NCBI RefSeq assembly: GCF_050920415.1
Contig: NZ_CP169309.1
Length of the DNA stretch: 64,000 nt
Origin: Escherichia coli
GTDB lineage: Bacteria > Pseudomonadota > Gammaproteobacteria > Enterobacterales > Enterobacteriaceae
Direction: 5' to 3' (one strand)
A program made the position numbers and the translations under genes. Positions within the stretch are counted from its first letter, which is position 1, and every line of letters starts with the position of its first letter. Shown here one piece after another: positions 54,483 to 60,047 of the stretch. The notes beneath the pieces were generated by a model, which saw only the letters and a program-made list of their open reading frames with translations, had not been told where the DNA came from and made no database searches.

Positions 54483-55409
54483 ATGACTGAACAACAAATT
54501 AGCCGAACTCAGGCGTGGCTGGAAAGTTTACGACCTAAAACCCTCCCCCTCGCCTTTGCTGCAATTATCGTCGGGACGGCGCTGGCATGGTGGCAAGGTC
54601 ACTTCGATCCGCTGGTCGCCCTGCTGGCACTGATTACCGCCGGACTGCTTCAAATTCTCTCTAACCTCGCTAATGATTACGGCGATGCAGTAAAAGGCAG
54701 CGATAAACCTGACCGCATTGGCCCGCTACGTGGCATGCAAAAAGGGGTCATTACCCAGCAAGAGATGAAACGGGCGCTCATTATTACCGTCGTGCTCATC
54801 TGTCTCTCCGGGCTGGCACTGGTTGCAGTGGCGTGCCATACGCTGGCCGATTTTGTCGGTTTCCTGATTCTTGGCGGGTTGTCGATCATTGCCGCTATCA
54901 CCTACACCGTGGGCAATCGTCCTTATGGTTATATCGGTTTGGGTGATATTTCCGTACTGGTTTTCTTTGGCTGGTTAAGCGTCATGGGCAGCTGGTATTT
55001 ACAGGCTCATACGTTGATTCCGGCGTTGATCCTTCCGGCGACCGCATGCGGCCTGCTGGCAACGGCAGTACTGAACATTAATAACCTGCGTGATATCAAT
55101 AGCGACCGCGAAAATGGCAAAAACACGCTGGTAGTGCGCTTAGGTGAAGTGAACGCGCGTCGTTATCATGCCTGCCTGCTGATGGGCTCTCTGGTGTGTC
55201 TGGCGCTGTTTAATCTCTTTTCACTGCATAGCCTGTGGGGCTGGCTGTTCCTGCTGGCGGCACCATTACTGGTGAAGCAAGCCCGTTATGTGATGCGGGA
55301 AATGGACCCGGTGGCGATGCGACCGATGCTGGAACGCACTGTCAAGGGAGCGTTACTGACTAACGTGCTGTTTGTTTTAGGGATATTCCTAAGCCAGTGG
55401 GCAGCATAA
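54483..55409 (+). CDS. menA: 1,4-dihydroxy-2-naphthoate octaprenyltransferase
   Basis: Conserved start MTEQQISRTQAWLESLRPKTLPLAF (308 aa); UbiA prenyltransferase family membrane protein. Confidence 0.94.
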   Translation: MTEQQISRTQAWLESLRPKTLPLAFAAIIVGTALAWWQGHFDPLVALLALITAGLLQILSNLANDYGDAVKGSDKPDRIGPLRGMQKGVITQQEMKRALIITVVLICLSGLALVAVACHTLADFVGFLILGGLSIIAAITYTVGNRPYGYIGLGDISVLVFFGWLSVMGSWYLQAHTLIPALILPATACGLLATAVLNINNLRDINSDRENGKNTLVVRLGEVNARRYHACLLMGSLVCLALFNLFSLHSLWGWLFLLAAPLLVKQARYVMREMDPVAMRPMLERTVKGALLTNVLFVLGIFLSQWAA

Positions 55410-55501
55410 CTGACAAATATCAATTAACAATTGATGATTTTGCCAACAGCCCACATAGCGCGATATACTGAAAATTCTCGCAGCAACTGAATGTTAAGCC
55501 T

Positions 55502-55987
55502 ATGAAATACGATACTTCCGAGCTTTGTGACATCTATCAAGAAGATGTTAACGTCGTGGAACCGCTGTTCTCCAACTTTGGCGGACGGGCGTCGTTTGGC
55601 GGACAAATAATCACGGTAAAATGTTTCGAGGACAACGGGTTGCTGTACGATCTGCTCGAACAGAATGGCCGTGGTCGTGTTCTCGTCGTTGACGGCGGTG
55701 GTTCTGTTCGTCGCGCACTGGTCGATGCTGAGCTGGCGCGTCTGGCAGTACAAAATGAATGGGAAGGCCTGGTCATTTACGGCGCGGTGCGTCAGGTAGA
55801 TGACCTGGAAGAGCTGGATATCGGCATCCAGGCGATGGCAGCAATTCCAGTCGGTGCCGCTGGCGAAGGCATTGGCGAAAGCGATGTCCGCGTTAATTTT
55901 GGCGGCGTCACCTTCTTCTCCGGTGACCATCTTTATGCCGACAATACCGGAATTATTCTTTCAGAAGATCCGCTGGATATTGAATAA
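55502..55987 (+). CDS. rraA: RNase E inhibitor RraA
   Basis: 161 aa, [56 protein letters not shown]... Confidence 0.95.
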
Positions 55988-56003
55988 GTACCTGCCATGC
56001 GTT

Positions 56004-56030
56004 AAAAGGGGAATTAAATTCCCCTTTTTT
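56004..56030. terminator. Intrinsic terminator after rraA
   Basis: aaaagggg aattaaatt cccctttttt. Confidence 0.7.
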
Positions 56031-56245
56031 ATATGCAAAATATTCATAAAGACTATCGTTTGTTTTTATTTAATTCATTTTAAATATCAATAGTTCACAT
56101 CTGACAATATAAATTAATTATCGATAAATCATTTCATAAAAATATGCAGCATTAAAAATTAATGCTATATGGTAAATTAACTATTCTGGGAATAGGGATA
56201 TGAATCATCGTTAGTAGCGAACGTATTAAATAATAATGGATTGAT

Positions 56246-56524
56246 ATGAAATACGTTATCTTATTAATACTATGGATAATAACTACTTTTCTTAGTCATC
56301 TTCAGCACAGCAACCTACTGTCTGGAGATCCTGGCATGGTTGGCGAGTATATCGGTTCAGTATTTCTGGGGCCGTTGTTACTTCCCGTGCTTGTGTCAGG
56401 TATTCTGTGCGTATTTATTAAAAAAAAACGTAACTTCGCCAGTTTTACTCGCGGGTGCTGTTGGGTATTGGGAATCCTGCTTTTATCCAAAGTCGGCAAT
56501 ACGTTTCGTATGTTTACCCCGTGA
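56246..56524 (+). CDS. Hypothetical small membrane protein (92 aa, 2-3 predicted TM helices)
   Basis: ORF MKYVILLILWIITTFLSHL.. in a very AT-rich insertion between rraA and zapB. No homolog recognised, so the coding status is unverified. Confidence 0.45.
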   Translation: MKYVILLILWIITTFLSHLQHSNLLSGDPGMVGEYIGSVFLGPLLLPVLVSGILCVFIKKKRNFASFTRGCCWVLGILLLSKVGNTFRMFTP

Positions 56525-56554
56525 CAATATACCTTTGAGAATGCTGCGATAACC

Positions 56555-56962
56555 GTGACTATCCCGAACCGACACTGGAATACGGTTTCCATTAGTACTA
56601 ATAAAACCATTGATATAAGAAGTGAGGATAATAGCGTCTTCATTTCTGCTTTCCGCCTGCCCGCAGGACGTAGCGCCGATGACCCGCTGGAAGCGTTAAA
56701 GAAGAAGCAGCGAGACAATCTCAAGGATCAATACAATGAGGAAGCCTTCCAGTTTCATGATTGTAATGCCAAACATTTCACCTGTAAGTATCAGGATGTG
56801 TTGATAAATTTTGATGGTCAGCAGAAAAGAACCATCAGTGTTTATCTTGAAGACACCCCTAGGGCTGTGGGGATCATTGCATTAATGGCGCCAGATACGG
56901 CAGATAAATATCGCCAACAGGCGATGGAGATTATGCTTTCCGCTAAAAATGCAGTGAAGTAA
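56555..56962 (+). CDS. Hypothetical soluble protein (135 aa)
   Basis: ORF directly downstream of the 92 aa ORF with a probable GTG start. No family recognised by eye. Confidence 0.45.
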   Translation: MTIPNRHWNTVSISTNKTIDIRSEDNSVFISAFRLPAGRSADDPLEALKKKQRDNLKDQYNEEAFQFHDCNAKHFTCKYQDVLINFDGQQKRTISVYLEDTPRAVGIIALMAPDTADKYRQQAMEIMLSAKNAVK

Positions 56963-57000
56963 AAAATAAGGCGCCTTGCGGCGCCTCTGCGTGGAAGAGA

Positions 57001-57294
<294 letters not shown>

Positions 57295-57379
57295 TTACCG
57301 GTGACGCCTTAATAAATACGAGCGCACTTTAGTTAGCTCCGATTGTATGAAGCCGCGCCATCGCTGTCCAGCGGCACGC

Positions 57380-57670
57380 CTTGCAGATTACGGTTTGCCA
57401 CACTTTTCATCCTTCTCCTGGAGACATAATCCACGCAAATCGAAAATGTTAATAAATTTGTTGCACGAATGATCTAACAAACATGCATCATGTACAATCA
57501 GATGGAATAAATGGCGCGATAACGCTCATTTTATGACGAAGCACACACATTTTAAGTTCGATATTTCTCGTTTTTGCTCGTTAACGATAAGTTTACAGCA
57601 TGCCTACAAGCATCGTGGAGGTCCGTGACTTTCACGCATACAACAAACATTAACTCTTCAGGATCCGATT
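57380..57670 (+). promoter_or_regulatory. glpFK promoter/operator region (CRP and GlpR sites expected)
   Basis: Intergenic region upstream of glpF with GlpR-operator-like repeats (ttcgatatttctcg, ctcgttaacgataag) and a CRP-like region. Established knowledge: glpFKX is controlled by GlpR and CRP. Individual sites were not delimited. Confidence 0.5.

Positions 57671-60047
<2,377 letters not shown>

Follow-up and report, generated by a model that had tools for sequence, protein, structure and literature searches.

The described proteins closest to the one considered here are DcrB, the proteins of the PsbP/CyanoP group, several type VI secretion system (T6SS) immunity proteins, and the Eag chaperones. 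The protein is encoded by a small islet between rraA and zapB of Escherichia coli, in a 64,000-nucleotide (nt) stretch of contig NZ_CP169309.1 (RefSeq assembly GCF_050920415.1), referred to below as the window. In the window, the islet gene is interrupted by a stop codon; its intact orthologs, herein referred to as gene B, encode 238 amino acids (aa).

DcrB (DUF1795, PF08786; PDB: 6e8a) is an inner-membrane lipoprotein of E. coli and Salmonella. It is held in the membrane by a lipid anchor, in contrast to the three transmembrane (TM) helices of the islet protein. The islet protein has no significant hidden Markov model (HMM) match to DUF1795, and its conserved pair of Cys residues and VPxxW motif are specific to its own family. 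Whereas dcrB is, as far as is known, a core gene, the islet gene is variable and often lost. PsbP and CyanoP, as well as uncharacterised bacterial PsbP-like proteins (PDB entries in this group: 2xb3, 3lyd, 3hlz), are only 9-12% identical to the islet protein, which has no photosynthetic context.

The T6SS periplasmic immunity proteins TplEi/Tli4 (PDB: 5h7y), Tsi3 (4luq), and PA3488/Tli5 (7wdk) differ from the islet protein in their surroundings and in their anchoring. No effector or T6SS genes adjoin the islet gene in the loci examined, where the neighbours of the family are rraA, zapB, nlpA, pfkA, and a group of esterase, major facilitator superfamily (MFS), and AraC genes. The islet gene has a fixed address beside rraA, and its product carries a three-TM anchor instead of a signal peptide or lipobox. 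Its fold also scores lower against these immunity proteins than against generic PsbP-like proteins. The Eag chaperones are described in a preprint (bioRxiv 10.1101/2020.10.28.356139) as cytoplasmic, soluble proteins encoded beside prePAAR/Rhs effectors. Unlike EagT6/PA0094 (PDB: 1tu1) and SciW (6xrb), both assigned to DUF1795, the islet protein is membrane-anchored, with a domain predicted to be periplasmic and no effector neighbour.

One gene interrupted by a stop codon

The locus has the gene order menA, rraA, a 1013-bp gap, zapB, glpF, and glpK on the E. coli chromosome. The preliminary description of this DNA had recognised in the gap about 1 kb of additional, very AT-rich DNA relative to K-12. 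It had interpreted this DNA as an insertion and proposed that its two open reading frames (ORFs) encode a membrane protein and a soluble partner, possibly a toxin/immunity pair or phage-derived cargo. Both ORFs, of 92 and 135 aa and separated by 30 nt, are present; the first has three TM segments and is hydrophobic, whereas the second is soluble, as judged by hydropathy, an AlphaFold2 model, and the charge distribution. However, they form the N-terminal and the C-terminal half of a single 238-aa protein, split by a nonsense mutation.

Both ORFs lie in a single reading frame of 717 nt, in which the sole internal stop is a TGA (Table 1). In the alignment, this TGA corresponds to TGG (Trp93) in the intact loci of strains MS 21-1 and O157:H7 FRIK2069, and no internal stop was found in any of the seven other alleles translated. 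Trp93 is invariant in nine close sequences of gene B and its paralog, gene A, but not in the wider family. The GTG "start" of the 135-aa ORF lies within the intact gene, where it encodes Val, and no ribosome-binding site can be recognised for it. In strain MFDS1022581, which is 99.9% identical, the NCBI annotation pipeline (PGAP) treats the same locus as one pseudogene with 'internal stop'. Additionally, the family profile is matched by the two fragments on complementary halves, at positions 1-89 and 91-234.

Because the two ORFs are halves of one protein, encoded as such in the orthologs, a toxin/immunity pair is excluded; no PADLOC match and no Pfam or NCBIfam toxin domain were found. The result thus mainly corrects the earlier view, replacing a two-gene islet by one inactivated gene. 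The extra 1 kb itself is real: the spacer measures 1013 bp in the window (end of rraA at 55987, end of zapB at 57001) vs. 84 bp in K-12 MG1655. The extreme AT content holds for the first ~260 bp (25.6% GC at 55988-56245, 22.7% in the core at 56030-56240), but not for the ORF-bearing part (42.8%, against 51.1% in the whole window). The region is genuine coding DNA with conserved homologs, and K-12-like genomes do not have the same spacer.

Considered as a whole, it is highly probable that the window carries a rare one-gene haplotype with the gene broken at codon 93, that the intact product is an inner-membrane protein with a periplasmic domain, that the occupied site is ancestral, and that the K-12 state is a loss. 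The window locus is an ordinary decaying pseudogene of an uncharacterised accessory gene. The stop would take away the entire periplasmic domain, so that at most a three-helix membrane stub would be made. Of the stop contexts in E. coli, UGA with a following C is the leakiest, and its near-cognate decoding by tRNA-Trp would insert Trp. A trace of the full-length, wild-type protein might therefore be produced by readthrough.

Table 1. Features of the rraA-zapB region in the window (positions are those of the window).
Feature	Position	Strand	Remarks
rraA	55502..55987	+	conserved left flank; from the ORF list and the annotation of 99.9%-identical strain MFDS1022581
rraA intrinsic terminator	56004..56030	+	12-nt inverted repeat without mismatches (AAAAGGGGAATT/AATTCCCCTTTT) and, after it, a T run
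AT-rich non-coding 5' region	56028..56240	+	213 bp, ~23% GC (22.7%); separates the rraA terminator from gene B; restricted to the one-gene haplotype
Putative promoter TTCACA-16 nt-AATTAT	56094..56121	+	inferred by consensus scan; within the best-conserved spacer block
Shine-Dalgarno position	56235..56240	+	5 nt before ATG 56246; AATGGA here and in O157
Broken family gene (gene B)	56246..56962	+	single frame with one internal stop; PGAP pseudogene call; 717 nt as in intact orthologs
N-terminal fragment (92-aa ORF)	56246..56524	+	three TM helices, approximately residues 2-26, 29-57, and 64-90
A9 homopolymer	56420..56428	+	codons of the Lys-rich cytoplasmic loop (KKK); A7 in other alleles; frame intact here
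Premature stop TGA	56522..56524	+	Trp93 to stop; TGG in intact alleles; next base C
C-terminal fragment (135-aa ORF)	56555..56962	+	greater part of the periplasmic domain with the Mog1/PsbP/DUF1795 fold; the GTG "start" is Val104 within the intact gene
GC-rich hairpin GGCGCC-TTGC-GGCGCC	56968..56987		between the convergent islet gene and zapB; scored as a zapB terminator, with its T run on the minus strand
zapB	57001..57246	-	conserved right flank; convergent with the islet gene

The site downstream of rraA

The rraA-zapB gap was compared by megablast with 5426 complete E. coli genomes. The islet was found in 679 of these genomes, always on the chromosome, and the short K-12-type junction was found in 4717. 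A two-gene form is carried by about 660 genomes, including those of O157:H7; here the islet is 1521 bp long and contains gene A (224 aa) and gene B, the ortholog of the window gene. A and B are tandem paralogs with 30% identity (E = 1e-34). The window represents the rarer one-gene haplotype of this variable islet, which lacks gene A and was found in 18 genomes. In EC42405 and 2013C-4282, the two other spacer carriers with annotation read, gene B is intact.

Relatives of the gene were found at this site in E. albertii, E. whittamii, the cryptic Escherichia clades E1V33 and MOD1-EC7003, and other Enterobacteriaceae. Outside Escherichia, the distribution of the family is known from metagenome and assembly contigs; the narrow-alignment locus search reached only Escherichia. 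In every enterobacterial locus with a readable upstream flank, the family gene is located downstream of rraA. In Escherichia spp., gene A and/or gene B stand between rraA and zapB. Family gene P0047 has the same flanks (loci L033 and L034), P0052 follows menA and rraA (L030), and P0033 follows rraA (L010 and L012), with pfkA downstream in L011. P0034 has rraA upstream and the esterase, MFS, AraC, and pfkA genes downstream (L026 and L028). For P0029 (L009), the contig ends upstream, leaving that flank unreadable, and zapB is directly downstream. Only the distant subgroup P0050 was found in an unrelated context, in an apparently non-enterobacterial genome.

Three of these arrangements contain additional elements. 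In L008, a tandem pair of A-like and B-like genes follows rraA, and a fragment of an IS200/IS605-family transposase (103 aa; L008 9761-10072) lies between the B-like gene and zapB. In L023-L025, an nlpA-like lipoprotein gene of the MetQ/NlpA family (L023 5796-6614) lies between rraA and family gene P0031, which is followed by zapB; the rraA-zapB gap thus collects other envelope genes too. In L014-L016, only a 3' fragment of rraA is found upstream of the very divergent P0046. It consists of the last 20-28 codons (L014 1672-1755), 85-86% identical to E. coli RraA. These contigs also contain a DUF4225 gene and small ORFs on the other strand, and the arrangement resembles an rraA 3' end that was rearranged or duplicated.

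The flanks and the family gene differ strongly in their conservation. In L030 and L033, RraA is 91-93% and ZapB 91% identical to the E. coli proteins (88-93% overall for RraA, ZapB, and MenA), in contrast to only 20-25% for the family protein. Judging from these identities, deeply divergent allele classes lie between conserved flanks at this site. A strain-specific insertion would be absent from outgroups at the same site, and such absence was not observed. The family would have been present downstream of rraA since before the divergence of the Enterobacteriaceae genera. Because the gene appears to be an old resident of the site, the K-12 state is most likely a loss and not an ancestral empty site, and the DNA in the window was probably retained and not inserted; the insertion proposed in the preliminary description would thus have the wrong direction. 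Consistent with this, the hairpin located 3' of gene B (56968-56995, AAGGCGCCTTGCGGCGCCTCTGCGT) resembles, by direct sequence comparison, the hairpin directly after rraA in the 84-bp spacer of K-12 (AAGGCACCGCAAGGTGCCTTTTTTCTGCGT; L005 2346-2262, minus strand). This likeness suggests that the K-12 spacer is a remnant left when the gene was deleted.

The B alleles compared are eight in number (seven intact alleles and that of the window) and represent five species or clades of Escherichia; all are 717 nt long, with no indels. Pairwise dN/dS (ratio of non-synonymous to synonymous substitution rates) is 0.10-0.28 for gene B; gene A is less constrained (0.36-0.64). Between O157 and E. albertii, the dS of gene B (0.35) lies between those of rraA (0.26) and menA (0.71), which fits vertical descent together with the flanks. 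Apart from the stop, the window allele has 2 synonymous and 2 non-synonymous differences from the nearest intact allele; with so few differences, the inactivation is evidently recent. It is not the only one. Gene B of strain TCM3e1 is split by an insertion sequence (IS), ISKpn26 of the IS5 family (L004 1549-3375), which is an independent inactivation; an IS fusion of the family gene was found in Shigella dysenteriae, and several clusters of truncated products exist for both allele types. In TCM3e1, the 5' part of the B allele is only 77% identical to that of O157, a possible sign of another allele or of a recombinant.

Predicted structure and function of the intact protein

Sequence searches did not assign the protein to a described family. 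Scanning both fragments with NCBIfam, PADLOC, and PHROGs produced no significant match (PHROGs E = 0.026 and 0.16). Pfam also gave nothing significant for the intact protein and 20 family members, with no hit for the O157 protein and with no significant HMM match to the DUF1795 (PF08786) or PsbP (PF01789) families; a weak PsbP match (E = 3.4e-3) was found in one of the 20 members. A profile search of PDB sequences yielded only chance TM matches and an insignificant match to Tli4_C (E = 0.69). When 1.84 billion cluster representatives were searched exhaustively with a profile, only 33 proteins were found, and the full-length ones have 227-241 aa and the same layout. The family is small and unstudied, with no Pfam or NCBIfam model; its carriers include E. 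coli O157:H7 and other pathogens.

The AlphaFold2 model, built from a 20-sequence alignment, has a mean predicted local distance difference test score (pLDDT) of 91.2 and a predicted template modelling score (pTM) of 0.79. In this model, the three helices are followed by an alpha/beta sandwich at residues 93-231. A Foldseek search of AFDB50 returned first family members in Shigella, E. albertii, and Klebsiella oxytoca, and next generic 'PsbP C-terminal' and 'DUF1795' proteins, some of them with TM anchors. Among solved structures, the highest fold scores were obtained for the Jonesia protein 3lyd (14.2), CyanoP (12.4), and BT_1490 (12.0). These are followed by PA0094/EagT6 (11.8), LpqN (11.0), TplEi (10.4), DcrB (9.9), SciW (9.4), and Tsi3 (8.7). 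By its predicted structure, the protein belongs to the Mog1/PsbP/DUF1795 fold superfamily.

In the 20 family members, the loop between TM2 and TM3 contains on average 4.05 Lys and Arg and 0.15 Asp and Glu residues, and the loop between TM1 and TM2 is net acidic. Because of these charges and the positive-inside rule, the N-terminus and the basic TM2-TM3 loop would be cytoplasmic and the C-terminal domain periplasmic. The intact 238-aa product would therefore be an inner-membrane protein with ~145 residues in a periplasmic alpha/beta sandwich. C173 is kept in 19 and C180 in all 20 of the family members; in the model, they lie on adjacent strands of a hairpin, and this cross-strand pair probably forms a periplasmic disulfide that stabilises the domain.

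Since every characterised member of this fold is a non-enzymatic binding scaffold, the intact protein may be read as a non-enzymatic, membrane-tethered periplasmic binding module. It might protect the envelope in an immunity-like manner, by binding an incoming protein that acts in the periplasm. We propose this role tentatively. Orphan immunity is one possible function, and its basis is only the fold resemblance and the evolutionary pattern. An immunity-like protector, directed at a periplasm-acting toxin or at phage entry, and a DcrB- or LpqN-like role appear to be about equally likely, and each of them, taken singly, is doubtful. The case for the immunity-like protector, made with low confidence, consists of the fold common to TplEi/Tli4 and Tsi3, the hypervariable alleles, the tandem paralog, the patchy presence, and the repeated decay.

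Several points weigh against this picture. Orphan immunity genes do not typically have a fixed chromosomal address beside a housekeeping gene, and no effector, T6SS, colicin, or contact-dependent inhibition (CDI) gene adjoins any family member examined. The best fold matches are generic (the uncharacterised Jonesia protein, CyanoP, and BT_1490) and not immunity proteins. The domain assignment rests on a predicted structure, as the Pfam, NCBIfam, PADLOC, and PDB sequence matches are all insignificant; the topology and the disulfide are likewise predictions. No experiment or paper on the function of the protein was found in the literature. With regard to the gene in the window, matches to the promoter consensus are no more frequent than in shuffled sequence, and "dead" may mean "strongly reduced", given the leakiness of UGA-C.

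The nearest competing explanation is that the protein is a DcrB-like factor of envelope homeostasis, i.e., a membrane-anchored periplasmic scaffold for the handling of lipoproteins or lipids or for a membrane complex, and that its loss is the neutral decay of a dispensable accessory factor. The stable address beside menA and rraA across genera, the fold, the purifying selection, and the lack of conflict-system genes nearby would all agree with such a role. On the other hand, the alleles are only 20-45% identical where RraA, ZapB, and MenA are 84-95% identical, a divergence far faster than is typical of housekeeping envelope factors, and 87% of E. coli lack the gene, which is repeatedly pseudogenised. 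We consider this role conceivable, but improbable when taken by itself. The pattern itself is unusual, as it combines very divergent alleles at one conserved rraA site, sometimes a tandem paralog, and repeated pseudogenisation. If it reflects conflict with toxins or phages, the family would represent a new stand-alone gene for envelope protection; if not, it would be another dispensable DcrB-like envelope protein. The modest interest that remains lies in this behaviour of the locus.

It is very unlikely that the gene is phage or plasmid cargo, such as a moron or a superinfection-exclusion gene, that was recently inserted between rraA and zapB. The AT-rich DNA relative to the genome, the patchy distribution within E. 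coli, and the IS200 fragment in the related locus L008 could be taken as signs of such an origin, and DcrB, a relative by fold, is needed for infection by some phages. However, a tblastn search with the family was negative for 50,697 phage records and gave no genuine match in a plasmid collection, where the sole hit (PLSDB NZ_CP141089.1, 4.94 Mb) is evidently a mislabelled chromosome. PHROGs and PADLOC gave no support. No integrase, no tRNA, and no convincing flanking direct or inverted repeats were found at the islet, and other species and genera carry the family at this site. The locus was not recognised as a prophage, mobile element, or genomic island, and IS elements are only secondary insertions (L004 and L008). 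The phage-derived cargo suggested earlier is accordingly not supported.

There is similarly little chance that the stop is tolerated or used, either through UGA-C readthrough with Trp or through separate use of the three-helix stub. Identical truncated products (…RMFTP-stop) are recorded on at least 65 public contigs, and an identical 135-aa ORF on 89, so the stop allele is carried by a lineage. This persistence, the few other changes in the allele, and the weak termination at UGA-C, with its low-level decoding by tRNA-Trp, would be expected if the stop were harmless. The exact 61-mer around the stop, however, was found in only 1 of the 5426 complete genomes, the low divergence fits a recent mutation, no recoding signal was found, and the stop is not conserved in any other lineage.

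Two separate small genes, for a 92-aa membrane and a 135-aa soluble protein acting as a toxin/immunity or similar pair, have a negligible probability: both ORFs exist, and some GenBank annotations list the 135-aa ORF and a 62-aa 'putative membrane protein' separately, but the shared frame, the single TGA in place of TGG, the start at an internal Val, the PGAP pseudogene call, and the intact orthologs under purifying selection in five Escherichia species or clades all speak for one broken gene.

Start site, spacer, and neighbouring features

The true start of gene B is very probably the ATG at 56246 (238 aa, as in the EDL933 annotation) and not the ATG at 56336 chosen by PGAP (208 aa), since, beginning at residue 1, its first helix can be matched position by position to that of paralog A, and a Shine-Dalgarno-like sequence is located 5 nt upstream. 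This sequence reads AAGGGA in the other five one-gene haplotypes aligned. The RefSeq start sites of the gene (208 aa) are thus probably 30 codons short.

The AT-rich spacer was found in 18 of the 5426 complete E. coli genomes. Escherichia sp. E1V33 (95% identity), E. whittamii (90%), E. coli SCPM-O-B-8794 (83%), and the type strain of E. albertii (78%) have related spacers at the same position upstream of gene B. Because it is conserved in these four other Escherichia haplotypes, the spacer is not random filler. Its best-conserved block, at approximately 56076-56125, is nearly invariant in the alignment, and the putative promoter in this block is the sole plus-strand promoter-like site found by the consensus scan of the spacer. 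Six Escherichia haplotypes keep the rraA terminator hairpin, in which E. albertii has one compensatory change.

An Rfam search of 55400-57700 gave nothing significant; its sole match was sraA on the rraA terminator (E = 0.8, 24 bits vs. a gathering score of 56). RNAalifold found no well-supported conserved structure in the spacer beyond this terminator, the covariation term being unfavourable (+2.2 kcal/mol). The spacer was also compared with paralog A as a possible degraded remnant of it. The best local alignment is at the 5' end of A, but 57 of 300 shuffled sequences score as high, and this origin was rejected. A high-affinity H-NS motif (TCGATAAATT) with one mismatch at 56121-56130 is uninformative, as 12 such sites are found across the window.

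An antisense ORF of 140 aa (56302-56724, minus strand) overlaps the islet gene; it is unsupported and almost certainly spurious. The A9 tract in gene B is prone to slippage and could explain some of the N-terminally truncated public variants, e.g., the 150-aa P0101.

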